Positions 1-12,940 of a stretch of 12,940 nt of DNA are shown here, in pieces (positions within the stretch are counted from its first letter, which is position 1; each line of letters opens with the position of its first letter). The stretch comes from a virus: the IMG/VR virus record IMGVR_UViG_3300045988_172454; one strand, written 5' to 3'. Below the pieces are notes generated by a model that worked only from the letters and a program-made list of their open reading frames with translations, made no database searches and had not been told where the DNA came from. The translations under genes and the position numbers were made by a program.

Positions 1-120
1 AAATGCATAACCATAAATACATAAATACATAAATATGTATATACATAAATACATAAATACATAAATACATAAATACATAAATATGTATATACATAAATAC
101 ATAAATATGTATATAAATAT
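1..120. repeat. Left inverted terminal repeat. A 12-bp unique terminus, AAATGCATAACC, is followed by a tandem array of an 8-bp unit (ATAAATAC) and a 16-bp unit (ATAAATATGTATATAC, containing the 14-bp palindrome TATGTATATACATA)
   Basis: Positions 1-30 are the exact reverse complement of 12911-12940. Beyond that the two ends carry similar 8-bp and 16-bp unit arrays with different unit order and number. The genome begins with AAA, as expected for protein-primed sliding-back initiation. Confidence 0.8.
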
Positions 121-145
121 TTATTTAAATATTTACAAATAATTA

Positions 146-174
146 TTGACATTATATTATATATATGTTAATAT
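146..174 (+). promoter_or_regulatory. Sigma-A-type promoter for the late/structural operon: -35 TTGACA (146-151), 17-bp spacer, extended -10 TGtTAATAT (166-174)
   Basis: The -35 hexamer is an exact consensus match. The 17-nt spacer and the TGn-extended -10 lie 18 nt upstream of the first ATG, which has the RBS GAGGTGA at 181-187. Confidence 0.6.
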
Positions 175-191
175 ATACGTGAGGTGATATT

Positions 192-434
192 ATGAAGAAC
201 ATTAACAACACAATTGATAATATACTGATTGCACTTGGTGCAACTTGGAGTTTAGCTAATATTCAAACACTACTTGGCATTATAGTGTTAGTTTTCCAAA
301 TTGTATGGCTTACATTTAAACTAATTGTCAAAATCATAAATAAGATTAAAACAAAGGGTAATTTAGATGAGTTAGACAAAGAAGTTGATAAAATAACTGA
401 TAAGATTAATTCAATAGGTGATGAAGATGAGTAA
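192..434 (+). CDS. Small membrane protein, holin-like (80 aa). It has two predicted hydrophobic helices followed by a Lys-rich and then acidic coiled-coil tail
   Basis: The ORF has a strong RBS (GAGGTGA). The hydrophobic segments ILIALGATWSLANI and LLGIIVLVFQIVWLTFKLIV are followed by KIINKIKTKGN and a C-terminus ending ...DEDE. This topology and size match class II holins, but no lysin partner is evident. Confidence 0.45.
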   Translation: MKNINNTIDNILIALGATWSLANIQTLLGIIVLVFQIVWLTFKLIVKIINKIKTKGNLDELDKEVDKITDKINSIGDEDE

Positions 435-1428
435 CACAATAAATAACCGCAAGGAATGGATTTTAGCAAGTTGTAAAAACGTACTTCAAGATAAAGATTA
501 TTTAATTAAACATATGATACTTCATATGCTTAACAAAACAACAAAAATGTTTAAATATACAGGTTTACCTGACACAATCAATGTAAAAGATTTAGAAACT
601 CAGTTACAAGTAAACGGTTTTGCTATTTGGAAAGAAGTTGAAGGAAAATTATACACATTTACTGGTGGATTAGGCGGTGAACCTAATGTATACTATCTAC
701 CAACTAAAGCTATAATATCAAATCCTGCTCTAAGATATACTGCTTCACTTGAGATAGATAAAGAATGTGTTGTTATGCTTAATGATTATTACTATGACGG
801 ATTAATGCCAATTAATAATAAATACGCTTCATTAATAACTGAAGGTGAATTATCGCTTAAATACGCTATGATAAATGCTAGAATTCCATCATTAGTACAA
901 GCTGATAATGATAATACCGCTGAGTCCGCTAAATCATTTTTTAATAAAATTGAGCGTGGTGAAGATTATGGTATTATTACTTCTAAAGAGTTTTTTGATG
1001 GTATAAAAACACACGATTTTCTAAAGATACAAAATATAAAAGATTTAATAGAAGTAGTACAATATTTAAAAGGTAGTTGGTACAATGAAATTGGTATACG
1101 TTCAACATTCAATATGAAGCGTGAAGCAATCAATAGTAGTGAAAGTTCATTAAATGATGATATATTAAGACCTTTTGTTGATGTTATGTTAGAATGTAGA
1201 AAAAATGCTTTAGAGAAGATTAATAAAATGTTTAATACAAATATAACAGTTGAACTTGATAGTGTATGGCTTTCAACACAAGTTGACGAAGATTTATCAC
1301 AAGATTTAAAAGTGGCTCAAGTAGAACAACTTGAGAAAACTAATGATAAAAAAGAAGAAAATAAAGGTGGTGAAGACAATGAAACTGTGGGAAACCCTGA
1401 CGGACGAAGAGAAAATACAACTGATTAA
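427..1428 (+). CDS. Head-tail connector / portal protein (phi29 gp10-like upper collar). The ORF track starts it at GTG 418; I prefer ATG 427 because of the upstream AGGTGA RBS
   Basis: The segment FKYTGLPDTINVKDLETQLQVNGFAIWKE...GGLGGEPNVY matches, from memory, phi29 gp10 [28 protein letters not shown]...GALSGQRDVY. The size of about 333 aa is also similar to gp10 (309 aa). Confidence 0.7.
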   Translation: MSNTINNRKEWILASCKNVLQDKDYLIKHMILHMLNKTTKMFKYTGLPDTINVKDLETQLQVNGFAIWKEVEGKLYTFTGGLGGEPNVYYLPTKAIISNPALRYTASLEIDKECVVMLNDYYYDGLMPINNKYASLITEGELSLKYAMINARIPSLVQADNDNTAESAKSFFNKIERGEDYGIITSKEFFDGIKTHDFLKIQNIKDLIEVVQYLKGSWYNEIGIRSTFNMKREAINSSESSLNDDILRPFVDVMLECRKNALEKINKMFNTNITVELDSVWLSTQVDEDLSQDLKVAQVEQLEKTNDKKEENKGGEDNETVGNPDGRRENTTD

Positions 1429-2215
1429 TCGTGAAATTGTTGGTATTTTTTCAACAATGATTTTATCAGGTGATGATTATTATTCACTTGCTAATGATTT
1501 ATGTTTAGGGTATTATATGGAGCGGAGCGGACAAAAAACTATATCAAAAACATATCAATTAATGTTAGATACTATTAAAGACAATAAAATTACTAATGAA
1601 ACCGCGGAAAGTTTATTAGGAAAATTAATACGTGGTAAGTATTCTTATAAATGGACTAAGATATACAATGCGTTAATGAATAACGATTATAAAGTATTGG
1701 ATGAATATGCTTCAACTACTATTACTAAAGGTAATAATGTTGATGAAACAAATTATGCTTCTCAAGTTGGAAAAACAGGAGCAAATAAAGATGAAACAAT
1801 TTATAATACTACTAATGAAGATGATGGAACATCAGGTAGTAGTGAAGTTACAACTCGTAATACTGAAAATAATAATGATGTATATGGGTTCAACAGTGTA
1901 TCACCTGTAGCAGCAAACACTAATAATGAAGTAATTACTGAAAAAGTAGAGGGTGAAGCCTCTAAAAATACAACACATAATACATCTACTAAAACAGGAA
2001 CTGACACTAAAAACTTCACTATTGATGAAAATCAATCTAAAACAGGAAAAGATACTATTAATAAAACTATAGATGAAAATGAAAATGTAAATGGACGTTA
2101 CAAAACAGGTGCTGAATTAATTAATAAAGAACTTGATATGCGTGAAAAACAAATACTTTTCAACATATTCTATAGAGATATTGATAGTGTTGTAACTTTA
2201 CAAATATATGAATAA
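1379..2215 (+). CDS. Structural protein, possibly a lower collar / tail tube protein (phi29 gp11-like by position and size). The 294-aa ORF-track version (1331) is an in-frame upstream extension lacking an RBS
   Basis: ATG 1379 is preceded by AGGTGG (1365-1370). The gene follows the portal gene as gp11 follows gp10 in phi29. The protein is 278 aa with a helical N-terminus, a Thr/Asn/Glu-rich low-complexity middle and a conserved-looking C-terminus. Confidence 0.4.
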   Translation: MKLWETLTDEEKIQLINREIVGIFSTMILSGDDYYSLANDLCLGYYMERSGQKTISKTYQLMLDTIKDNKITNETAESLLGKLIRGKYSYKWTKIYNALMNNDYKVLDEYASTTITKGNNVDETNYASQVGKTGANKDETIYNTTNEDDGTSGSSEVTTRNTENNNDVYGFNSVSPVAANTNNEVITEKVEGEASKNTTHNTSTKTGTDTKNFTIDENQSKTGKDTINKTIDENENVNGRYKTGAELINKELDMREKQILFNIFYRDIDSVVTLQIYE

Positions 2216-2230
2216 AGGAGTGATTAAAAA

Positions 2231-2509
2231 ATGCAAAAAGGCGGTTATCAAATAATCGATTTAGAAAATTGGAAGTTTACAACAACTAAAGGTGCTCCTG
2301 TTGCTAAAACACAAAAAGGAGTATATGCCCTTATAAAAGGGACTAGAAAAGTAATAATGTTAAGTGGAATTAATCTTGATGGAAAAGAGTTACACGACAT
2401 TTTCATTGAAGTAACACTAAACACTACTACTTATGAAGCAACAATTTATAGTAATTATAAATTAACAATTACTAATACAGACGTTGTTACAATTGAGGCT
2501 TTAAAATAG
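2231..2509 (+). CDS. Hypothetical small beta-rich protein (92 aa) immediately upstream of the capsid gene. It may be a capsid-associated or decoration protein. It does not look like a helical scaffolding protein
   Basis: The ORF has an AAAGGAG RBS and a Thr/Val/Ile-rich composition. It occupies the position of phi29 gene 7 but with a different character. Confidence 0.45.
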   Translation: MQKGGYQIIDLENWKFTTTKGAPVAKTQKGVYALIKGTRKVIMLSGINLDGKELHDIFIEVTLNTTTYEATIYSNYKLTITNTDVVTIEALK

Positions 2510-2525
2510 AAAGGAGATATAAAAT

Positions 2526-3692
2526 ATGAAAGTAGAACAAGCCTATGAATTTACAAATTATGCAACAAAAGAGGCTATTGGTGAAGTAGTAATTCTTAAA
2601 GAGGATTTATCAAACATAGTTGATGTTGGTGACGCTATTTTTAATGCTAATGCTTATGATAAATACGTTCACGCTTTAGTAAATAGAATTGGTAGAACTA
2701 TATTTGTAAATAGAGTATATCAAGGTAGTGCACCAAGTGTATTAATGGATGGTTGGGAATATGGTTCCGTTTTACAAAAAGTATCAGGTGCATTACCTGA
2801 AGCAAAAGTTAATGAAACGTGGGAATTACAAGACGGACAAAGTTATGACCCACATATCTTCCACGCTCCAAAAGGTATTGTTGTTAAGTTTTATAATGAC
2901 TATGTAACATTTGAAGTTGATATGTCATTTACTGAAGAACAATTAAAGCAAAGCTTTATCAATGCTAATGAGTTAAACGGATTTATAAGTATGCTTTATA
3001 CTCTTGTTGAAAACTCATTAACTGTTAAAATTGATGAATTAATACGTAGAACAATTAACAATATGATTGGTGAAACATTATATGATGATTATGCTTCAGG
3101 TACTGTATTTAATAATAAATCAGGAGCGAAAGCTATTAACTTATTATATTTATATAATCAAACAAAAGCTGAAGCTGACCAATTAACAGCTACAAATTGT
3201 ATCACAAATCCTGATTTTATTCGCTATGCGTCATACATTATCAAATTAACATTTGATAGACTACATACTATGTCAACAATATTTAATATAGGTAATCAAC
3301 CAAGATTTACACCTAAGGACTTATGCCATATTGTACTATTAACTGATTTTGCAAGTGGTGCGGATGTATTTTTACAAAGTGACACTTTCCATAATGAATT
3401 ATCAGCTTTACCAAAGAGTGAGATTGTTTCATATTGGCAAGGTAGTGGAACTGACTTTGGATTTAACAGTGTATCTAAGATAGATATTAAAACTGCTGAT
3501 GGAAATGACGTAGCAACAACGGGTATATTAGGAGTAATGTTTGATAGAAACGCATTAGGTGTATGTAACACACAAAGAAAAGTTACTTCACAATGGACTC
3601 CTAATGCTGAGTTCTTCACAAACTTTTATAAATACAAAGCAGGGTTCTTTAATGATTTAAATGAAAACTTTGTAGTGTTCTTTGTTGCATAA
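2526..3692 (+). CDS. Major capsid protein (phi29 gp8-like)
   Basis: It has the strong RBS AGGAGA with an 8-nt spacer. The segment DKYVHALVNRIGRTIFVNRV resembles phi29 gp8 NDFITSLVDRIGLVVIRQ (recalled from memory). At 388 aa it is the longest non-tail structural ORF and is followed by a hairpin plus T-run. Confidence 0.65.
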   Translation: MKVEQAYEFTNYATKEAIGEVVILKEDLSNIVDVGDAIFNANAYDKYVHALVNRIGRTIFVNRVYQGSAPSVLMDGWEYGSVLQKVSGALPEAKVNETWELQDGQSYDPHIFHAPKGIVVKFYNDYVTFEVDMSFTEEQLKQSFINANELNGFISMLYTLVENSLTVKIDELIRRTINNMIGETLYDDYASGTVFNNKSGAKAINLLYLYNQTKAEADQLTATNCITNPDFIRYASYIIKLTFDRLHTMSTIFNIGNQPRFTPKDLCHIVLLTDFASGADVFLQSDTFHNELSALPKSEIVSYWQGSGTDFGFNSVSKIDIKTADGNDVATTGILGVMFDRNALGVCNTQRKVTSQWTPNAEFFTNFYKYKAGFFNDLNENFVVFFVA

Positions 3693-3700
3693 TTAATTAA

Positions 3701-3748
3701 GTGATAGAAGTAAAGAGTATAAGATTTACTCTATACTCTATCACTTTT
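3701..3748 (+). terminator. Imperfect hairpin plus T-run downstream of the capsid gene, a candidate partial terminator or attenuator. Arms GTGATAG/CTATCAC and AGAGTA/TACTCT, then TTTT
   Basis: The outer 7-bp stem and inner 6-bp stem are followed by TTTTAATATT. It lies between the capsid stop (3692) and the next start (3772). Confidence 0.4.
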
Positions 3749-3771
3749 AATATTAGAAAGGATGTGAAAAA

Positions 3772-5556
3772 ATGGCAAAAGTATTAGATATACAAGAAAT
3801 AACATTACCATCAGCGTTAAATAGTACACAAACAAGTGGATATTATTACAATGGTTATTATTATATTAATACTTATAATAAGATATATAAATATGATTAT
3901 ATTAATAATGTTTTAACTATTTTATATAACAAATCAACTGAGAGTTATTATTGTTTAGGAATAAATGACAATATATATAGTTTTTATTATAATCAAACAG
4001 CAAGACAAGGTGATAATTATGTTTTTAACATTATTTTATATGTTTATAACATCACTAATAATACATATACTGAGCTAGGTAGTTCAAATTGTCCTTTTGT
4101 TGTTTATGGACACGAAATTGTATCTTTAGGTATCAATATGTTTTCATTTGATGGTAAAAAAATATATATATGTAATAGTATGTTTGAATATAAATCAACA
4201 TCAAATGGTTATACAAATTTTTATAGTAGATTAATTTATCATTGTTATAATATTGACACAAATAGTTTTACATATAATACTAAGGGTGGAACGGATAATG
4301 GATATATACCTTGTATAACACAACCTATTATATATAATAATAAATATTATTACAATATGACAAAATATAATGAAATACTAAATAATACATATAATATCTA
4401 TAGAAAAAATTTAGGATTCATAGATGTATTCATTGATAGTTGGGGTGATGAGTTCCTACAAATGAAAAACCTTTCCTCTTTAGATTATGATATAAGATAT
4501 AATGCCATTATGAAAAAAGAAGATGGTATTTATTATTTAATTGGTGGATATCTTAATGATAGTACAGTTAATAGAAAACTATATGAACTTAATTTAACTT
4601 CTCAAACTTTAACTGAGACAACATACGTATTACCTGAAGATTTTAGAGCTGTTAATGCGTGGTTTGTACAAGGTGAAAATGAAGGCTTTATATTTACTAA
4701 AACTAAAGCATATAAGTTTAGTTTTATTGAATATAATAATATTTATAACATTAGTAATAGTAAAGGTGATTTTATATATCAAACATTAACTGAACAATCA
4801 CCAATTAGTAAATTAAAGTTTACACAATCAGGTGATAATATTGGATATAATTTTACAACAATAACAGGTGATGTAACAGGAATATATACTCCACAAATAC
4901 CTAGTGGTTATAAATTAATAGGTTATTCACCTTCACCTAATTCAACAAAAGCAATAATACCTTTAGATACTGAAATTACCTATAATGTATTAGAAGATTT
5001 TACTTTCTATGAAGTGTATGGTAAATATCGTCCTATATATACTCCTTTTAGTATAAAACTTTATCAAAATAAAGCTGAAGCAAATAGAGTAGATAAAACA
5101 AATTATATCACTCTTGTTAAAGAGGTGTTAGGTGTTTTACGTGAGTCAACATCAATAATTGATTTTGCAGTTGTTCTAGAATTAGATACTTTCCCTAATT
5201 TTAACTATGTTTATATAGAAATATTTAATAGATATTACTTTGTAAGTGATATAGTATCCGTTAATAAAAATATATGGGAAGTGTCATTAAGTTGTGATGT
5301 ACTAATGAGTTATAAAGACGCTATTAATGCTTGTACCGGTTTTGTTGATAGAAACGAAAATACTTATAATTTATTAATAGTAGATGATAAATTACCTTTA
5401 AAACAAGGACAAACAATAACTACTGCTTTTGTGAATAATACATTATTTGATGATATTCAAGGAACATATGTTTTACAAGGATTACTTGTTACTCAAGGTG
5501 ATATTGTTACACCTCAAACACAAACAACTGAAACTACAACGAAGGAGGATAAATAA
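3772..5556 (+). CDS. Tail fibre / receptor-binding protein candidate (594 aa). The N-terminal half is extremely Tyr/Asn-rich with Kelch- or beta-propeller-like repeats
   Basis: Repeated Y/N/G motifs include GYYYNGYYYI, IYSFYYNQ, GKKIYICNS and EDGIYYLIGGYLND. Its size is comparable to the phi29 gp9 / appendage class. It is translationally coupled to the next gene by a TAATG overlap. Confidence 0.45.
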   Translation: MAKVLDIQEITLPSALNSTQTSGYYYNGYYYINTYNKIYKYDYINNVLTILYNKSTESYYCLGINDNIYSFYYNQTARQGDNYVFNIILYVYNITNNTYTELGSSNCPFVVYGHEIVSLGINMFSFDGKKIYICNSMFEYKSTSNGYTNFYSRLIYHCYNIDTNSFTYNTKGGTDNGYIPCITQPIIYNNKYYYNMTKYNEILNNTYNIYRKNLGFIDVFIDSWGDEFLQMKNLSSLDYDIRYNAIMKKEDGIYYLIGGYLNDSTVNRKLYELNLTSQTLTETTYVLPEDFRAVNAWFVQGENEGFIFTKTKAYKFSFIEYNNIYNISNSKGDFIYQTLTEQSPISKLKFTQSGDNIGYNFTTITGDVTGIYTPQIPSGYKLIGYSPSPNSTKAIIPLDTEITYNVLEDFTFYEVYGKYRPIYTPFSIKLYQNKAEANRVDKTNYITLVKEVLGVLRESTSIIDFAVVLELDTFPNFNYVYIEIFNRYYFVSDIVSVNKNIWEVSLSCDVLMSYKDAINACTGFVDRNENTYNLLIVDDKLPLKQGQTITTAFVNNTLFDDIQGTYVLQGLLVTQGDIVTPQTQTTETTTKEDK

Positions 5557-6710
5557 TGGCTACTGATAATAAATGGATTAGAGCACAAACTACAGGTTAC
5601 GATACCTCAATGAATGGTAAAGTAGTAATGACTCCAACACAGGTTAATACTTTGTGGAAATGGGTAATGAAAAGTCCTATATCTTCAGCTATATTTGGTG
5701 ATTATACAAAGTGGTGTAGTTCACTAATGTTTTTTCCATTTAATATATCACCTGATGTAACAGCAAATTATAAACTCTCAGTAATGGGTGTACAATCGGA
5801 TGAAATTACTTGTAAAGGATTAATTCCATCCAATGCAATATTTGGATACACTTTAGGTGAATACTTATATCCTTTACCTACTAAATATTTGGATTATGAA
5901 CCTTATACAAAACTTGAAGTGTATCTACCATTTTATGGACTAATTAATTTAAAAATTAGTGATGTTGCCGGTAAATACATTCAATTTAGATTGTTTGTTG
6001 ATTTTAATAGTGGAGTAGCACAATATGTAGTGGGAGTAAATGAAGTAAGTGTATCAAGTCCTAATGCTCCATATTGGATTAATACTGATGATACTAATAC
6101 TAGAATAATTGGTACTTATGTTTTTAATTTAGGATATAACATTCCGATAACTTCAACAGGAATGGCTGAAACAATACGTAATATTTCACTTGCTGTAATA
6201 AAAGGAACAGGTAATATTGCAAGTAGCTATATTGTAGATAAACTAACACCTAATACTACTACAAGTGCAAGTACTACCACTTTTACAAGAAGAAATCCAA
6301 AAACCGGTAGACAAGTGACTATGGGTACTAAACAAGAAGTTGAAACACGTGAAAGATATGATTATGGCACTAACCAAAGAGTAGGTACAGCATTTAATAC
6401 CGCAACAAGTGTATTAGAGGGTTTAAGTTTATCACCTGTTGTTGATAAAGCTAATAATAATATTATCAACAGTTCAACGTGTATGTCCGTTGTCATTATT
6501 AAAAAACAAGTAGTACCAACTATTGATATTACTAGTAGCGAGTATCGCAAACTTTATGGATTACCTTTAGGTGAGTTTAAATTGCTTTCTACAATCACTG
6601 GATACACTGAAATATCTTCAATACATTTAGAAGGTGAAGGATTTAATGAGGCTACTCATAAAGAACTAGCAATGATTAGTGAATTACTTAATGGGGGTAT
6701 TATTTTATAA
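5556..6710 (+). CDS. Putative tail protein (384 aa; tail knob or distal tail component)
   Basis: It has the RBS AAGGAGGA with a 6-nt spacer. It sits between the fibre-like gene and the packaging ATPase with start/stop overlaps on both sides. It is beta-rich and no catalytic motif is recognised. Confidence 0.35.
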   Translation: MATDNKWIRAQTTGYDTSMNGKVVMTPTQVNTLWKWVMKSPISSAIFGDYTKWCSSLMFFPFNISPDVTANYKLSVMGVQSDEITCKGLIPSNAIFGYTLGEYLYPLPTKYLDYEPYTKLEVYLPFYGLINLKISDVAGKYIQFRLFVDFNSGVAQYVVGVNEVSVSSPNAPYWINTDDTNTRIIGTYVFNLGYNIPITSTGMAETIRNISLAVIKGTGNIASSYIVDKLTPNTTTSASTTTFTRRNPKTGRQVTMGTKQEVETRERYDYGTNQRVGTAFNTATSVLEGLSLSPVVDKANNNIINSSTCMSVVIIKKQVVPTIDITSSEYRKLYGLPLGEFKLLSTITGYTEISSIHLEGEGFNEATHKELAMISELLNGGIIL

Positions 6711-7804
6711 TGAAAGAAAAATATTACACACTTAATAACATTCTTACTTATAATGCTGATTATAATATAATATATGGTGAAAGAAGTAATGGTAAAACAA
6801 CAGCAGTTTTGAGATACGCTTTAGAAGATTATATAAAAAGTAATTATATCAATCAACTTGCGATTGTTCGTAGATGGGAAGAAGATTTTAAAGGAAAAAA
6901 CGGAAGTCAAATGTTTGAAAGTATTGTTAATTTGGGATGGGTTGAAGAACTTACTAAAGGTAAATATAACGCTATCTATTACTATTCTCAAAGGTGGTAT
7001 CTAGCATTTTATAATGATGGTGAAAAAACTTTACAAGAAGAAAAACCTTTTGCCTTAGGTTTCTCAATTACTAGTGAAGAACATTATAAATCAACATCAT
7101 ATCCTAATATTAAGAATATATTATTTGATGAGTTTATCACAAGACAATATTATCTACCTGAAGAGTTCGTCAAGTTTCAAAATCTTTTATCAACTCTTAT
7201 TAGGTTAAAGAAAGATGTTAAAATATTTATGTGTGGTAATACGATAAATAAATACTGTCCATACTTTGCGGAAATGGGTTTATCAGGTGTTAAAAAACAA
7301 GTTAAAGGAACGATTGATTTATACACATATGGTGAAAGTACATTAAAAGTTGCTGTTGAATATAGTGACTTTCCATCTAAGAAAAAAGCAAGTAATAAAT
7401 ACTTTGCTTTCAATAATCCTAAATTACAAATGATAACTCACGGTGGATGGGAAATTGATATTTACCCTCACTTACCGCATAAATACCTTCCAAAAGATAT
7501 ATTATATCAATTCTTTATTCTTTTTGATAATGAAAAATTACACGGTAATATAATAAGTGTAGATGATACAATTTTTCTATATATTCATAGGAAAACAACA
7601 CCTATTAAAGAGAATAGTGAATACCTTATCTATCAACAACAACCTGATTACAGGCGAAATTATAGAACCAATATTTTAAAACCTTATAGTAAAGTTGATA
7701 AATATATCACAAATCTAATAGTTAATAAAAAAATCTTTTATCAAGATAATGAAGTTGGTGAGATTATGAATAACTATTTGAAATGGTGTATTTCAGGTAA
7801 ATAA
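6710..7804 (+). CDS. DNA packaging (encapsidation) ATPase, phi29 gp16-like
   Basis: Walker A GERSNGKT corresponds to phi29 GARGIGKS. Walker B ILFDEF corresponds to phi29 IVFDEF. Its 364 aa compare with about 332 for gp16, and it is the last gene of the + unit as in phi29. Confidence 0.85.
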   Translation: MKEKYYTLNNILTYNADYNIIYGERSNGKTTAVLRYALEDYIKSNYINQLAIVRRWEEDFKGKNGSQMFESIVNLGWVEELTKGKYNAIYYYSQRWYLAFYNDGEKTLQEEKPFALGFSITSEEHYKSTSYPNIKNILFDEFITRQYYLPEEFVKFQNLLSTLIRLKKDVKIFMCGNTINKYCPYFAEMGLSGVKKQVKGTIDLYTYGESTLKVAVEYSDFPSKKKASNKYFAFNNPKLQMITHGGWEIDIYPHLPHKYLPKDILYQFFILFDNEKLHGNIISVDDTIFLYIHRKTTPIKENSEYLIYQQQPDYRRNYRTNILKPYSKVDKYITNLIVNKKIFYQDNEVGEIMNNYLKWCISGK

Positions 7805-7830
7805 AAAAGATAGTAGAAATACTATCTTTT
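7805..7830. terminator. Bidirectional intrinsic terminator between the convergent ATPase and polymerase genes: AAAAGATAGTA-GAAA-TACTATCTTTT
   Basis: A perfect 9-11 bp stem (7805-7815 pairs with 7820-7830) carries a GAAA tetraloop. A T-run follows on the + strand (TTTTATTTAT) and a U-run on the - strand (complement of AAAAAA 7803-7808). It overlaps the last codons of the polymerase gene. Confidence 0.7.
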
Positions 7831-9957
7831 ATTTATATAACTTGATTTAACACCCATAATAAGTTTTATAAACTCATTATCTAATCCTAAAACATATCCG
7901 GTAGGCTCCATATGTACTCCTGATAACTCAAGATACTTTCCTTTGTTGCCAAGATAATCTATTACTTCACCTTGCATTTCATCATCAATATATGTATGGC
8001 AAAGTTTACCGCTACCTTGTTTTTTCACACCATTATCATTATAAACAGGTGGAAACTCTAATTCATTTTCAAATGCTTTAAATATCTTATCATTAGTTTT
8101 AAATCTACTTCTAAGATAATTAGCACCATTACTTTTAGCAACTCCTGCTATAGTGATATTAATTTCACCGTTTTTTTCAATCATATACCTCTTAGCTCCT
8201 AAAGTTTTAAATCTATCATACATACCTTCATAGTCCCATACTCCTAAAGGCTTTTCAATTCCTTTGATAGTCTTTGGTGAGGCTTTTTTAACATCTATGT
8301 TATAATGTGATAAACATTTATGTATCTTTTCAGTAATACGATTATTATATTTTTCAATGTAATCTTTATGTTTATCAATGTTTAAAACCTTGATACTATC
8401 AGTATCGCTGTATATGTAATCATTTTTAAACTCTAATATACCGGTAAATAAATTACGTCTAGCGTATGCTGTTATCCATACTCCCCAAGGATAATAAAGA
8501 AATCTAGAAAAACTATCATTATATTTTTTTAAATAATCTTCAATTTGATAATTTTCTAATTTTTCTTCATACCATTCATCTTGTAGGGACAAATATTCAT
8601 TAATATCTCTACAGGGGTCGGTTACACACATACCATAGCAAGAATTAATCATACCTTTAGAAACTTGATATTCAGCCTCTTTTCCTTCAACATTCTTTAA
8701 TGTTGTTTTGTCAAAATATAATTTAAGTATCATTTCAATAAAACTTTTAGGTAAATACCCTTTGTAGAATTTTTTAAAATGACTAATCTTCATAGAGTCC
8801 CAAGTATACATTTGTGATACTATAAAGAAATCTTGTTCCGTAAAACTTATTTTTAACAAACTAGCTTCTACAACTCTACCATTATTTAATATATAGTGTT
8901 CTATTTTACTACATCTTGAAAATGATATATAATTTTCAAACTCGCTTGTTGCCCGGATATTTTCAAACTCAATATCAAACATACAACAATAAGTTTTTAA
9001 TAAAGTGATGAACTGTTTGCCACTTTCAATCTTAACAGGTATTGGTTTACTCATCGGAAACTTTTCACTAAGCATTACTGCTGGATACGAAGATGAAAAA
9101 TCGAAACTATGTACCTTTTCAACAACTTTTCCAACATAATTGACATTAGCGTGTGTAAATCCACCTGTATATGTTCTTTTAAGTTGTTTATAGTCATCAA
9201 TATCAATTTTTAATAATCTCATTAAGTGGCTATATTCATATCGTTCTTCACCTTTTAAACACACTGTTCTACAAGCATTACGGACATATCCTGTTTTAGT
9301 TAGGGGTAATCTAGTAATATCACCTAATCTTTCTATCTCTTCTTGAATAAATGCCATTACTACTAATCCATCATTCAGGATATACCCCCATTCAGTATCC
9401 GTAAGAGGTGTTTGTGAATGTCTAATTAGTTCATAATCTAAGTCTCCAACTTTTTTATTTACTTTATATTTAGTAAGGTTTTCACCTAATTTTTCTAGTG
9501 AATACCCCGAAAGTAAATAAGAACAGCGAAACTCTATACCTATTTCAGCTAGTGCATAAAGAGGTTTCCTTGTATCAGTTGCAAAAACTTTGCACCAATC
9601 AAACATTTTTCTAAACCATTGGAACTCATACGCTAAATTATGCACATAAATTATCATCTTATTAATTATAGATAATTCGTAATATTCACATACTCTTTGT
9701 AGAACTTTGAACCATTCATCCCACGTTCTACCTCGTATGCATTTTCCGTTTATTCCAAAAACCCAAGCATACATAGTACATTGTTTTTGGTTTTCTTCAT
9801 TATAAAAGGAACTAGCTTCAATATCAAATACTGAAGCTACATTCAATACATTACAATTTCTTGTTACTATCCAATCAAAAGGCTCTAATAGTTCTTCAAT
9901 ACTATTAAAGAAGTTTTTTGAGTTCATCGGTGAGTAAAATTGAAAGTTCGTCTTCAT
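7822..9957 (-). CDS. Protein-primed family-B DNA polymerase (phi29 gp2-like, 711 aa). I start it at ATG 9957 (RBS AAGGTGA) rather than the GTG at 9966
   Basis: Exonuclease motifs are Exo I FDIEAS, Exo II YVHNLAYEF and Exo III YILNDG. The YxGG motif is YTGGF, motif A is DFSSSYP, motif B is KGMINSCYG and motif C is YSDTDSI. A KxY motif is present as KRY. Confidence 0.9.
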   Translation of the reverse strand: MKTNFQFYSPMNSKNFFNSIEELLEPFDWIVTRNCNVLNVASVFDIEASSFYNEENQKQCTMYAWVFGINGKCIRGRTWDEWFKVLQRVCEYYELSIINKMIIYVHNLAYEFQWFRKMFDWCKVFATDTRKPLYALAEIGIEFRCSYLLSGYSLEKLGENLTKYKVNKKVGDLDYELIRHSQTPLTDTEWGYILNDGLVVMAFIQEEIERLGDITRLPLTKTGYVRNACRTVCLKGEERYEYSHLMRLLKIDIDDYKQLKRTYTGGFTHANVNYVGKVVEKVHSFDFSSSYPAVMLSEKFPMSKPIPVKIESGKQFITLLKTYCCMFDIEFENIRATSEFENYISFSRCSKIEHYILNNGRVVEASLLKISFTEQDFFIVSQMYTWDSMKISHFKKFYKGYLPKSFIEMILKLYFDKTTLKNVEGKEAEYQVSKGMINSCYGMCVTDPCRDINEYLSLQDEWYEEKLENYQIEDYLKKYNDSFSRFLYYPWGVWITAYARRNLFTGILEFKNDYIYSDTDSIKVLNIDKHKDYIEKYNNRITEKIHKCLSHYNIDVKKASPKTIKGIEKPLGVWDYEGMYDRFKTLGAKRYMIEKNGEINITIAGVAKSNGANYLRSRFKTNDKIFKAFENELEFPPVYNDNGVKKQGSGKLCHTYIDDEMQGEVIDYLGNKGKYLELSGVHMEPTGYVLGLDNEFIKLIMGVKSSYINKR

Positions 9958-10456
9958 CGTCTTCACCTTCCAATGCTTCTAAAGTATCATCATACGCATT
10001 AATAATATCTTCAATAATTGCTTCTTCAGTTTTTCCTTGATACATCATATCAAGTATAGTTCCCCATACTTCATATTTATATTTCTCAAAAGTACCTGAT
10101 GTTATCTCATACTGTTTACCATATATTTCCCAAAACTTTTTTTTCGCTTCAGGCGATAATGTTTTCAAGTTATTTTTTATAGGTTCTAATTTTCTTTGTA
10201 CCTCTTTAGCGCCTCTAACAGTACTTGATTTTAATTTTTCTATGTATGATAAATCTCTATAAAGATTTTCTAACTCTTTTCTAGAAAGTTCACTCAGTCT
10301 TTTAGGAATATTTAAACTTCTATATTTTTCTACTGCATATTGAGGTGTTGTTTCTTTATCATATTTCTCAATACGCTCAATTCGTCTTGATACATTTTTA
10401 ATAAGACGCCTAGTCTTTTTTCTAAGCGTCTTATCGTCTCTAGCAAAACTATTCAT
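9905..10456 (-). CDS. Terminal protein candidate (183 aa), immediately upstream of the polymerase and overlapping it by 53 nt
   Basis: Its position is that of phi29 gene 3, next to the polymerase gene. The N-terminus is strongly basic (KTLRKKTRRLIKNVSRRIERIEK). The C-terminal tail is acidic (EALEGEDDEDELS) and could mimic DNA in the polymerase template channel. No alignment could be run. Confidence 0.5.
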   Translation of the reverse strand: MNSFARDDKTLRKKTRRLIKNVSRRIERIEKYDKETTPQYAVEKYRSLNIPKRLSELSRKELENLYRDLSYIEKLKSSTVRGAKEVQRKLEPIKNNLKTLSPEAKKKFWEIYGKQYEITSGTFEKYKYEVWGTILDMMYQGKTEEAIIEDIINAYDDTLEALEGEDDEDELSILLTDELKKLL

Positions 10457-10465
10457 ATTTTACCT

Positions 10466-10846
10466 CTAAAATGGTAAATCTTTTTCATTAAATATGTTTT
10501 CTTTATCATCACCAAATACTGACTCAAGTTTTGCTTCTCTAATTTGTTTCAATTCTTCTTCAGTATATTTAGAAAGTTCAACAACTTTATTAATCCAAAT
10601 TGTAGGATTACCTTGCTTTTTCACACCATTTTTATCAGTGTAGAAATTTCCTTTTTCAATAGATACGTCATCAATATTAATTGTCATATGATACATACCT
10701 TTTTCTTTAGGTGTAGTTAAACATTCTCTAGTAAACTTCACTTTAAACCATTTAGTTTTCACTAGTGTAGTAAAAGCTACAAATGCTTTTCCATCGTTCA
10801 TTTTAATTTCCTTTGCATAAATTGTTAATTTTTGTGTTTTTTCCAT
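10466..10846 (-). CDS. Hypothetical early protein (126 aa), possibly an ssDNA-binding protein
   Basis: It has the RBS AAGGAG. It is Lys-rich and beta-rich (KWFKVKFTRE, TIWINKVVEL) with an acidic C-terminus. Its position upstream of the terminal-protein and polymerase genes matches that of SSB or DBP genes in phi29-like early operons. The assignment is weak. Confidence 0.3.
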   Translation of the reverse strand: MEKTQKLTIYAKEIKMNDGKAFVAFTTLVKTKWFKVKFTRECLTTPKEKGMYHMTINIDDVSIEKGNFYTDKNGVKKQGNPTIWINKVVELSKYTEEELKQIREAKLESVFGDDKENIFNEKDLPF

Positions 10847-10915
10847 AATTTTAATCTCCTTTATTTAATATTTTTTGTTTTTCTTAAACACATTTCAAAT
10901 TGATATAATCTTTTT

Positions 10916-11122
10916 TTAATAACGTCCACGATTTTCACAAATCTCAATCACTGCTTTAATAAACTCAAGCTCAGCTTCATAAAGCTCTAAATCCTTTTCT
11001 TGAATGCTTGATAAAATATCATAGATTTTAACATCTTTCAGCTGATTAATTTTCTCATAGAGTTCTATTCTATGTTTTTCTAAGAAGTTCTTTAATGTCG
11101 GCTTTCCGTCTTTATATGCCAT
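10916..11122 (-). CDS. Hypothetical early protein (68 aa, helical with a coiled-coil-like character)
   Basis: It has the RBS GGAGGTGA and its start overlaps the upstream stop (TAATG at 11120-11124). Confidence 0.45.
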   Translation of the reverse strand: MAYKDGKPTLKNFLEKHRIELYEKINQLKDVKIYDILSSIQEKDLELYEAELEFIKAVIEICENRGRY

Positions 11123-11346
11123 TATATCACCTCCTTCCTCGTTAAGAATATACCATTAGGTTTAAAGATATATATTATATCTTCTTCTTTAATGCTTTCA
11201 AATGATTTAATATTATTAGGGTCAAGGTCAATCAATATTACTCTATCACCTACTTTTAAATATGACTTTCCATCTTTAGTTCTAAATGTCATACCTGATT
11301 TTATAGCTTTTTTATCTTTAATAATTTCATATCTTGTATCTTCCAT
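11122..11346 (-). CDS. Hypothetical early protein (74 aa), possibly an AbrB/MazE-like DNA-binding regulator
   Basis: It has the RBS AAGGAG with a 6-nt spacer. The segment KSYLKVGDRVILIDLD resembles the swapped-hairpin pattern of AbrB/MazE (a weak call). It is the first gene downstream of the 360-bp regulatory region. Confidence 0.4.
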   Translation of the reverse strand: MEDTRYEIIKDKKAIKSGMTFRTKDGKSYLKVGDRVILIDLDPNNIKSFESIKEEDIIYIFKPNGIFLTRKEVI

Positions 11347-11492
11347 ATATACTCCTTATAATTTAATTTAATTCGGATTTTTATTTTAGGGTCTCACTTT
11401 TTTCAAAGTTTTCAACCAATTTCTTAATATTTTTATTCTAAAACTTTTTCAATTTTCTCAAACACGAAACTTTTTTGAAAAGTTTTTGTAGG

Positions 11493-11535
11493 GCTGAAGA
11501 GGGTTTTGGTGAGGGTCGATTTTTTTGCCCTTCAG
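11493..11535 (-). ncRNA. Candidate structured RNA element (GC-rich stem-loop) in an otherwise AT-rich intergenic region. The strand assignment is tentative
   Basis: The window GGGCTGAAGAGGG...GCCCTTCAGG is about 48% GC against a genome average of about 27%. The stem is 8 bp on the minus-strand RNA, because the G.U wobble there is an A-C mismatch on the plus-strand RNA, and the loop is a 25-nt A-rich sequence. It is followed on the minus strand by an AU hairpin (11467-11485). Confidence 0.3.
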
Positions 11536-11606
11536 GTTTTGGCTTGAATATTTGAACATATGAACACTTCATCATATGAACATATTTTCATATGTCTTTT
11601 CTTTGG

Positions 11607-11672
11607 TTTATTTATGTATTTACATATTTGTGTATATACATATTTATGTATTTATATAAATACATATTTATG
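11607..11672. repeat. Internal partial copy of the terminal-repeat units (8-bp and 16-bp units in right-end orientation, plus one inverted unit that creates the 16-bp palindrome GTATTTATATAAATAC)
   Basis: The sequence GTATTTAC.. GTATATACATATTTAT GTATTTAT ATAAATAC matches the right-end ITR units GTATTTAT and GTATATACATATTTAT. Confidence 0.7.
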
Positions 11673-11705
11673 ATGTCCCTTTCTTATTTCCTTAAGTTTT
11701 AGAAA

Positions 11706-11966
11706 TTAAGCGATTCTCTCAACTTGCTTTTGAGAGAAGAAGAATGCTTTTGATTTGAAGAATGAGCCATCGTTCACTTCTTCAGAATCTACTTCAGTTT
11801 TAACTTTTGTTTTCTTTGGAAACCAAATCATACACGCCATTACTGATTTCTCGCCCTTCTTGACTTGATAGCCAAGACGCTTCCAGTCTTTATAAGTTTT
11901 AAGTATTAAATCCTCATCTAGTCCTAATTCTTTTTTTGCTGTTTCGATAATTTGATAATTAGTCAT
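11706..11966 (-). CDS. Hypothetical early protein (86 aa). The ORF-track 99-aa version is an upstream extension
   Basis: The RBS AAGGAGGA lies 8 nt upstream of ATG 11966. The start overlaps the upstream stop (ATGA at 11963-11966), suggesting translational coupling. The protein is basic, Lys-rich and acidic at its C-terminus, so it is a candidate small DNA-binding protein. Confidence 0.5.
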   Translation of the reverse strand: MTNYQIIETAKKELGLDEDLILKTYKDWKRLGYQVKKGEKSVMACMIWFPKKTKVKTEVDSEEVNDGSFFKSKAFFFSQKQVERIA

Positions 11967-12160
11967 TTTTTTTGTCCTCCTTTTAAATAATAATTTTTGA
12001 CACATAATAATTCCATCACGTCAGCATTTTCATTATTTTTTATAAATTCATCATATGTAATAGTTTTAACCGCATTAATGAGTATTAAGTTACCATCCAA
12101 CCCCTCAACGTAGTAATTACCATAGTCATCAGTATAGATTTTTATTGTGCTTTTTTTCAT
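11963..12160 (-). CDS. Hypothetical early protein (65 aa), small and acidic
   Basis: It has the RBS AGGAGTGA with a 7-nt spacer and is coupled to the downstream gene. Confidence 0.5.
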   Translation of the reverse strand: MKKSTIKIYTDDYGNYYVEGLDGNLILINAVKTITYDEFIKNNENADVMELLCVKNYYLKGGQKK

Positions 12161-12177
12161 ATTGTATCACTCCTTTT

Positions 12178-12549
12178 TTAATAATAATAATAATCAACAT
12201 CTACTACGTCATCATAATCAAAATTATTACATTGAATTAAATCTTCATTTACATTATATAGTTCTATTGATAAAGTTGTAACAATATACCCGCCATAAGA
12301 TTTATTAAACTCTTTTGCATTACTCTTTACTACTTCTAAACATTCAAATAAATAATTTGTTGCGGTCAAATGTGTAATATATGGTAAATCATTAATATTA
12401 TTATTATTAATTTTTTCTCTAAAAATAACCCATTCATCACCACATCCGCTATTTGTAAAACTTCCTTGCTTACATACTATATTAACGTATCCTCCTTTCT
12501 TGATTGTTTCTCCAATTACTTTTTGTTGTCTGTCATTAAAATACATCAT
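12178..12549 (-). CDS. Hypothetical early protein (123 aa, Cys-containing), the first gene of the right-end early unit. The 137-aa ORF-track version reads through ITR-type repeats and is an artefactual extension
   Basis: The RBS AAGGAGGA (complement of 12558-12563) lies 8 nt upstream of the ATGATG at 12549. The protein contains CKQGSFTNSGCGDEW. Confidence 0.5.
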   Translation of the reverse strand: MMYFNDRQQKVIGETIKKGGYVNIVCKQGSFTNSGCGDEWVIFREKINNNNINDLPYITHLTATNYLFECLEVVKSNAKEFNKSYGGYIVTTLSIELYNVNEDLIQCNNFDYDDVVDVDYYYY

Positions 12550-12567
12550 TTTATAATCCTCCTTGAT

Positions 12568-12604
12568 GTTTATGTATTTATGTATATACATATTTATTTA
12601 TATG
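12568..12604. repeat. Second internal partial copy of the terminal-repeat units (GTATTTAT followed by GTATATACATATTTAT), in the 5' leader of the first early gene
   Basis: Positions 12574-12597 match the right-terminal units exactly. Confidence 0.7.
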
Positions 12605-12605
12605 T

Positions 12606-12629
12606 GTATCTGAAATCTCTATCAGATAC
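12606..12629. promoter_or_regulatory. Perfect 8-bp inverted repeat GTATCTGA-N8-TCAGATAC at the predicted start of the early transcript. It is a candidate operator or 5'-leader hairpin
   Basis: The inverted repeat is seen directly in the sequence. It lies immediately downstream of the candidate -10 (12636-12641, minus strand). Confidence 0.4.
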
Positions 12630-12635
12630 GCTAAT

Positions 12636-12665
12636 ATTATAAACCTTAACATATTTTGAAATCAA
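12636..12665 (-). promoter_or_regulatory. Candidate right-end early promoter on the minus strand: -35 TTGATT, 18-nt spacer, -10 TATAAT
   Basis: The -35 is the complement of AATCAA at 12660-12665 and the -10 is the complement of ATTATA at 12636-12641. The orientation and position are right for driving the leftward early unit. Confidence 0.35.
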
Positions 12666-12828
12666 GAAAAATCGTAATGAAAACGGTTTCAGTCTTTATT
12701 TTGAGTTGTAATCGATTTTTATTTTTTACCTTTATAGTTTTATAGGGTATATATGAAAATTGATTATAACGCAAAATAGACGTCAAAAATCACATTTGTA
12801 TTTTTGGTTGTCTTTGTATGTTATCGTG

Positions 12829-12940
12829 TTTTATGTATATGTATATATGTATTTATGTATTTATGTATATACATATTTATGTATTTATGTATTTATGTAT
12901 ATATTTAATTATGTATTTATGTATTTATGGTTATGCATTT
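12829..12940. repeat. Right inverted terminal repeat (tandem 8-bp and 16-bp units plus the 12-bp unique terminus GGTTATGCATTT)
   Basis: Its reverse complement, AAATGCATAACC ATAAATAC ATAAATAC ATAATTAAATATATAC ATAAATAC ATAAATAC ATAAATATGTATATAC ATAAATAC ATAAATAC.., matches the left end. Confidence 0.8.

Follow-up and report, generated by a model that had tools for sequence, protein, structure and literature searches.

Why would a linear phage genome keep pieces of its own terminal repeats in its interior? The window analyzed here, meaning the whole stretch of 12,940 nt, is a complete linear 12.94-kb genome (27.5% G+C) in which units of the inverted terminal repeats (ITRs) recur at two internal sites of the early region, and we asked what these internal copies might be for.

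Genome organization and relatives

The window is the genome of a phi29-like, protein-primed podophage from a human gut metagenome, and L036, a human gut metagenome contig, is sequence-identical to it. The rightward late genes encode a phi29-type connector, the major capsid protein and a Gp16 packaging ATPase, while the leftward early genes start at the right end and finish with a terminal-protein-like gene and the gene for a family-B, protein-primed polymerase (7822-9966; matches to PF03175 and phrog_1907). The terminal-protein gene, for which Pfam and PHROG gave no family match, was assigned by inference from its adjacency to the polymerase gene and from a 189-aa gene at the equivalent position in L015. 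The polymerase, the positional terminal protein and the inverted ends together place the window among protein-primed genomes with ITRs. Immediately before the terminal-protein gene sits a 126-aa early gene (10466-10846, minus strand) whose product had no family match; its C-terminus (...EKDLPF) recalls the acidic tip of bacterial single-strand-binding proteins, and the protein is probably a phage SSB.

A megablast search against GenBank phages returned nothing that matched the window, and the nearest named phages are Astrithrvirus-like, with a polymerase identity of ~45%. Comparisons were made with metagenomic genomes. The near relatives (L002/L014, L029, L034, L035, L037, L040-L045 and L049, from human and pig gut) are independent assemblies from different studies, drawn from IMG/VR, ENA and Logan, and share about 93-98% identity with the window over core genes. 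The wider relatives comprise 15 and then 70 further genomes with polymerase identities of 42-67%.

Terminal repeats and the distribution of their units

The left ITR (1-131, plus strand) consists of a terminal 12-mer (1-12) and, over 13 to ~131, an array that combines ATAAATAC and ATAAATATGTATATAC units, and the right ITR (12829-12940, minus strand) of a unit array (12829-12928) closed by the terminal 12-mer (12929-12940). Both arrays are built from 8-nt units (ATAAATAC) plus a 16-nt unit (ATAAATATGTATATAC). The genome ends are exactly inverted over 32 nt (1-32), beyond which the arrays are 89% similar over 108 nt. Across the whole phage group, the interval from the genome end to the first promoter commonly contains short tandem repeats. 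Directly downstream of the left array lies a late promoter-like site (146-174, plus strand; TTGACA-17-TAATAT with TG) whose sequence is conserved in L014 and L029, in keeping with an earlier, sequence-only reading of this DNA in which the left-end units abut the late promoter; an alternative site is found at 132-160 (plus strand; TTTACA-17-TATTAT). Direct reading of both strands found no -10-like TAnnnT hexamer in the arrays, and they are therefore unlikely to be promoters themselves.

The same reading had placed unit copies at two internal sites, both in right-ITR orientation, and both copies are indeed there. Site 1 spans 11608-11671 when set in 8-nt phase and site 2 spans 12568-12609, and at both of them the long ITR-interior matches are in right-ITR orientation only. 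All k-mers of at least 12 nt common to the ITRs and the interior (181-12800) fall within 11609-11672 or 12569-12597, and the 12-mers common to ends and interior number 38, against a mean of 2.8 and a maximum of 11 in shuffled sequence. Exact ITR-interior identity extends at most over 25 nt at site 1 (11631-11655) and 29 nt at site 2 (12569-12597), whereas the longest match in dinucleotide shuffles (n = 300) averaged 12.6 nt. Individual units are distributed likewise: GTATTTAT occurs on the plus strand at 11648, at 12574, at six right-ITR positions and as one stray copy at 4526, and GTATATACATATTTAT is present only at 11632, 12582 and 12865, with its reverse complement at 29 and 77.

The core motif ATAAATATGTANNTACATAAATA, allowing up to two mismatches, has 12 matches in the window, where 0 are expected by chance. 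The sequence-only reading had considered that the units might be comparably dense elsewhere in the genome; all 12 of the 12 matches lie in the two ITRs and the two internal sites, and 0 lie outside these four loci. A generalized form of the core, ATAAATATGTAnnTACATAAATA, was confined to the two ITRs, the leader of the first early block and a position preceding the second block. It consists of two inverted ATACATA half-sites among direct half-sites at 8-nt spacing and contains an exact 14-bp palindrome, TATGTATATACATA, at positions 34, 82, 12579 and 12862. When IMG/VR was scanned with a pattern for the 24-nt unit, only an already-known near relative matched. Since the genome is 72.5% A+T, one could suspect chance low-complexity similarity or an assembly artefact, but the longest match in any shuffle was 17 nt against the observed 25 and 29 nt, the core motif has its 12 matches against an expectation of 0, and identical sites with identical flanks recur in independent assemblies from different studies, such that we give this suspicion practically no weight.

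The terminal 12-mer, AAATGCATAACC, occurs only at the two ends (1 and 12929). This bears on the suggestion, made in the sequence-only reading as an alternative, that the internal sites are secondary origins. The one point in favor of protein-primed replication starting there is their similarity to the ITR arrays. AAATGCATAACC, whose 3'-TTT is required for priming and sliding back, is confined to the ends, and protein-primed polymerases need a free template 3' end (phi29; PMC4974454). Furthermore, both sites share one orientation and sit within transcribed early regions. What they reproduce is the array part of an ITR, away from any DNA end and devoid of AAATGCATAACC, and an origin function is highly improbable.

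Site 2 in the leader of the first early gene

Site 2 (minus strand) is made of ITR-type units, with its core at 12575-12597 and an exact copy of the palindrome TATGTATATACATA at 12579-12592. Upstream of it in the early direction are the right early promoter (12636-12665, minus strand; TTGATT-18-TATAAT) and an 8-bp leader hairpin, GTATCTGA...TCAGATAC (12606-12629, minus strand), and 3 nt downstream is the ribosome-binding site (RBS) AAGGAGG of the first early gene (12558-12564, minus strand; ATG at 12547-12549). Site 2 therefore belongs to the transcribed 5' UTR, spanning roughly +35 to +75, and does not precede a promoter. In relatives the promoter hexamers are consensus-like (TTGACG / TGTAAAAT; TG-TAAAAT) and their geometry is kept although the spacer varies, which supports a real right early promoter and, with it, the placement of site 2 between promoter and hairpin on one side and the first early gene on the other, as the sequence-only reading had it. 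The three natural changes in the hairpin are all G-U-compatible, on the early strand only, and the early leader folds far more stably than shuffled sequence (z = -5.1); the RNA pairing predicted within site 2 itself is weak and consists of A-U pairs alone.

At site 2, 8 variants share an unchanged 23-nt core, whereas the neighboring promoter spacer and hairpin loop differ among them; as variant divergence is low (about 93-98% identity), this invariance is weak evidence of selection. The RBS is conserved as well, and site 2 stays 3 nt from it in all variants. A second non-coding stretch (12666-12770, minus strand), running from a conserved TATAAT (12763-12768) to the right early promoter, is also almost invariant; its conservation exceeds that of the adjoining promoter spacer, and its fold z is -0.34.

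A transcribed site adjoining an RBS invites the explanation that the A/T richness of the arrays has an intrinsic effect, either as UP-like or bent DNA or, at site 2, as an A/U-rich leader that aids translation or mRNA stability. The left array does occupy the position of an UP element, and other A/T-rich short repeats stand upstream of terminal and internal promoters both in L015, where the repeats before its two early promoters resemble each other, and in L033, which carries an internal duplicate of its terminal early promoter. However, an 8-nt period is out of helical phase and would not be expected to produce planar bending, A/U richness leaves the 25-29-nt exact identity with the ITRs and the kept half-sites unexplained, and the weak, purely A-U pairing predicted for site 2 RNA also counts against it. 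We consider an intrinsic effect unlikely as the main account of the arrays.

Site 1 and the conserved block beside it

Site 1 (minus strand) comprises eight 8-nt ITR-type units. It comes after the stop codon of an 86-aa gene with an ArdC-N-like product and before a conserved non-coding block of ~175 nt, and gene positions bear out that it is upstream of the block encoding the 74-, 68- and 126-aa proteins, the terminal protein and the polymerase. The search for a promoter at site 1 gave weak matches, none of them convincing; taken overall, the promoter scan was at background, with 106 sites against 101.6 expected. The description of both sites as lying near the starts of transcription blocks is accordingly only half right, as site 2 is downstream of its promoter and no convincing one was found for site 1.

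Across variants, the units of site 1 differ in number and sequence, yet the half-sites ATATGTA/TACATAT are kept and the central dinucleotide between them varies (TA, TT, AA or GT). The 16-bp palindrome GTATTTATATAAATAC, which the sequence-only reading had put at 11651-11666, lies 3 nt away at 11648-11663 and is specific to the window rather than conserved; relatives carry GTATTTATGTATATAC, that is, regular GTATTTAT-GTATATAC units, in its place.

Between site 1 and the conserved block is a polymorphic 59-nt insertion (11549-11607, minus strand) made of CATATGAAC/GTTCATATG units. It is present in the window, L029, L040, L043, L045 and L049 and absent from L014, L034, L035, L041 and L042, and a weak promoter-like sequence, AAGACA-16-TATGAT, is located inside it at 11598-11571. 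The early-end contig of the distant relative L017 (50% polymerase identity) opens with ACATATGAACATATGAACAT (1-20), and sequence likeness suggests that the units of the insertion may be end-type repeat units of another lineage.

The conserved block (11372-11548, minus strand), which adjoins site 1 on its downstream side as the early genes run, hardly differs among 8 variants, including those with a different cassette or with a 124-128-aa gene inserted downstream. It has a G/C-rich 5' part and three imperfect palindromes of the form GAAAAnTTT...AAAAAGT. The genome encodes a phi29-type packaging motor and should therefore contain a pRNA-like gene at some position. For the block, a single compensatory pair, located in its G/C-rich part, and a fold z of -0.86 were obtained, and we do not claim a structured RNA or pRNA at 11372-11548; Rfam found no family in the window and none in 7 relatives at gathering score. 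In L034, L035, L037 and L045 (~1500-1900), the 74-aa gene is separated from the conserved non-coding block by an extra gene of 123-128 aa, which makes this gap a second hotspot for insertions among the early genes.

An exchangeable early cassette between the two sites

The two internal arrays enclose three early genes (11706-12549, minus strand) encoding proteins of 123 aa (12178-12549), 65 aa (11963-12160) and 86 aa (11706-11966), the last of them the ArdC-N-like protein. Alignment of the window with L029 shows 94% homology from the right end to 12543, just beyond the start codon that follows site 2; homology is absent over the enclosed genes and is back exactly at 11672, the outer edge of site 1. 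The gene sets found here in different variants encode proteins of 123/65/86 aa, 114/65/111 aa or 112/66/41/70 aa. Within site 1 of the window, the outer units match the allele linked to ArdC-N (L014, L034), and the inner units, together with the 59-nt insertion, match the other allele (L029, L040, L043, L045, L049); site 1 is therefore a hybrid of two array alleles, which indicates that crossovers occur inside the arrays. Taken together, these observations show that the two arrays bracket a swappable early-gene cassette and act as recombination breakpoints. For the 86-aa protein, the match is to the N-terminal, ssDNA-binding domain of ArdC, an anti-restriction factor (PF08401, E = 3e-7; phrog_7245), and by virtue of this match the cassette may be an anti-defence module.

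More than 10 independent assemblies retain both arrays, each time on the early strand, even though the genes between them are replaced. As the arrays coincide with the breakpoints, their conservation could partly reflect recent exchange. In mosaic lambdoid phages, conserved boundary sequences flank exchangeable modules. The window resembles these in having short conserved edge sequences at which the homology of relatives stops and starts and to which crossovers map; it differs in that its boundaries copy its own terminal-repeat units, in direct orientation with the right end.

It is possible, then, that the arrays are passive relics, either former ends or a duplicated ITR array internalized by added terminal modules, which now supply homology for cassette exchange and nothing else, with no protein recognizing them specifically. 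Both copies are oriented as internalized right ends would be, the loss of homology with L029 after 12543 and its return exactly at 11672 would follow, and the mixture of two alleles in site 1 points to a crossover within the array. Additionally, the number and composition of units differ among variants, and relatives with 65% polymerase identity do not have the first block, their terminal promoter standing directly before the replication block. Set against this are the absence of the terminal 12-mer beside either internal array, the stable inheritance of degenerate site 1 units with palindromic half-sites preferentially kept, and the precise placement of site 2 at 3 nt from the RBS in all variants; moreover, any conserved functional element beside a variable cassette would resemble a breakpoint too. 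We hold purely passive arrays, the chief competitor of the operator reading given below, to be somewhat unlikely.

A more speculative role would follow from the orientation of the internal arrays, which is that of the right end and makes pairing between an internal array and the left ITR conceivable after loss or swap of the right-terminal genes. The arrays could then be "spare telomeres", with end healing and cassette turnover built into protein-primed genomes. A genome that had lost its right-terminal accessory genes would pair an internal array with the left ITR, by a panhandle or by template switching, and so rebuild its end, and the homology of the arrays would let co-infecting phages exchange the early anti-defence cassette. 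We regard this role as unlikely.

The arrays as candidate operators

The best explanation of the internal blocks is that they are copies of the terminal arrays retained as cis-elements at both edges of the cassette. As to what such elements would do, our main reading is that they serve as operators, bound by a single DNA-binding protein which occupies the terminal arrays as well, and we put the probability of this reading at roughly 40%. The restriction of the units to four loci, far beyond chance, favors it. The persistence of both sites through cassette replacement in more than 10 assemblies also appears to speak for it, and half-sites of the form TATGTAT/ATACATA kept around a variable center (TA, TT, AA or GT) would be typical of dimer operators, a resemblance that is suggestive only. 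The placement of the arrays is a further point in its favor, as one is in the early leader downstream of the promoter and the left array stops shortly before the late -35. The shared DNA-binding factor across the four loci that the sequence-only reading had put forward is in our analysis plausible.

We infer that protein binds to the arrays and that this has regulatory effects, in the following manner. The putative binder would be sequence-specific and probably dimeric, and could be encoded by phage or host. At site 2, where the center of the palindrome is at about +44 of the right early transcript, its occupancy would block or weaken early transcription. At the left end, where the last palindromic unit is ~70 nt upstream of the late start, it could aid the late promoter, and its targets at the genome ends would be the replication origins. 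A single factor might thereby link replication with the early-to-late switch. The operator and recombination-homology readings are not mutually exclusive.

A search for the candidate protein among the ten early ORFs gave no match to a DNA-binding family in Pfam or PHROG, the sole match being that of the 86-aa protein to ArdC-N, and PDB sequence searches for a candidate binding protein gave no matches. Single-sequence AlphaFold models of the 74- and 65-aa proteins reached a pLDDT of 53-56, too poor for use, and the homologues found for the 74-aa protein all had at least 84% identity, too alike for a useful alignment. These negative results weigh against the operator reading, as do the close similarity of the variants and the lack of a clear promoter beside site 1.

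Comparison with known systems

The operator reading has precedents in phi29. There, p6 has sites near both ends, activates the initiation of replication and represses the end-proximal early promoter C2, and p6 and p4 together repress the early promoters and activate the late promoter (PMC4974454). The 24-bp binding unit of p6 recalls the super-period of 8 + 16 = 24 nt seen in parts of the window's arrays; however, p6 reads bendability and binds genome-wide, whereas the window has a defined sequence at four loci only, and the ITR of phi29 is only 6 bp long. No early ORF matched p6 or p4 in Pfam or PHROG at E <= 0.1, although a structural analogue may be encoded. As to position, the window carries arrays at both ends, and its right early promoter (12636-12665) falls in the interval from site 2 to the right ITR array, not under an array.

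Boxes for Spo0A are found in phi29 at both origins and at the A3, A2b, A2c and C2 promoters (PMC2731898), such that one factor controls replication initiation and transcription jointly. The window is alike in that a single motif occurs close to both ends and also at promoter-proximal positions in the interior, which is a resemblance rather than membership; the Spo0A-box motif TGTCGAA has 0 matches in the window. The window's sites differ from 0A boxes in being building units of the ITR, arranged as 8-nt tandem arrays, with a binder that is so far a putative one.

Local alignment of ends against interior revealed no reuse of terminal arrays in the 15 + 70 wider relatives, and a literature search of limited breadth turned up no description of ITR-unit copies inside the genomes of phi29-like phages. 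The L006-type clade (related phages of 11-12 kb, ~50% polymerase identity, about eleven genomes) has a palindrome, AATGTTTCACGTGAAACA, in the ITR and at one internal intergenic site, which is at 3682 in L006 and at ~4.3-5.0 kb in L063, L067, L070, L079, L081, L088, L091, L096, L106 and L118. In contrast to the window, this is a single palindrome rather than an array, and it follows the polymerase/ATPase block instead of standing beside early gene starts. As an analogous reuse of ITR sequence, it counts in favor of the operator reading.

Two other elements were noted in these relatives. In L017 a palindrome, TCCAGTnAACTGGA, is present in nine copies (83, 1154, 1266, 2640, 4590, 6120, 9779, 10994 and the late end), most of them just upstream of ribosome-binding sites or intergenic; this is a different dispersed element, either operator-like or for processing. 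L033 (753-801) and L030 (~470-540) have a hammerhead-ribozyme-like core (CUGACGAG, a stem, CGAAAC, a hairpin and GUC) upstream of an early gene of 81/82 aa, which in a 201-nt search scored 20.9 bits (E = 0.028) with Rfam Hammerhead_3, under the gathering score.

Implications

The arrangement described here can be seen as a variation on the shared origin and promoter binding sites of phi29-type phages, and its regulatory meaning is plausible. If one protein binds the terminal and the internal arrays, origin activity, early shut-off and late activation would be coupled by one sequence code, and defined sequence repeats would do what structure-based binding of p6 does in phi29. For the early-to-late switch of protein-primed phages, this would provide a minimal model that is easy to test. 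As the effect is lineage-specific, its general importance is moderate. Additionally, the arrays mark the exchange points of an accessory early cassette, which aids the reading of mosaicism in the very abundant 12-13-kb podophages of the gut.
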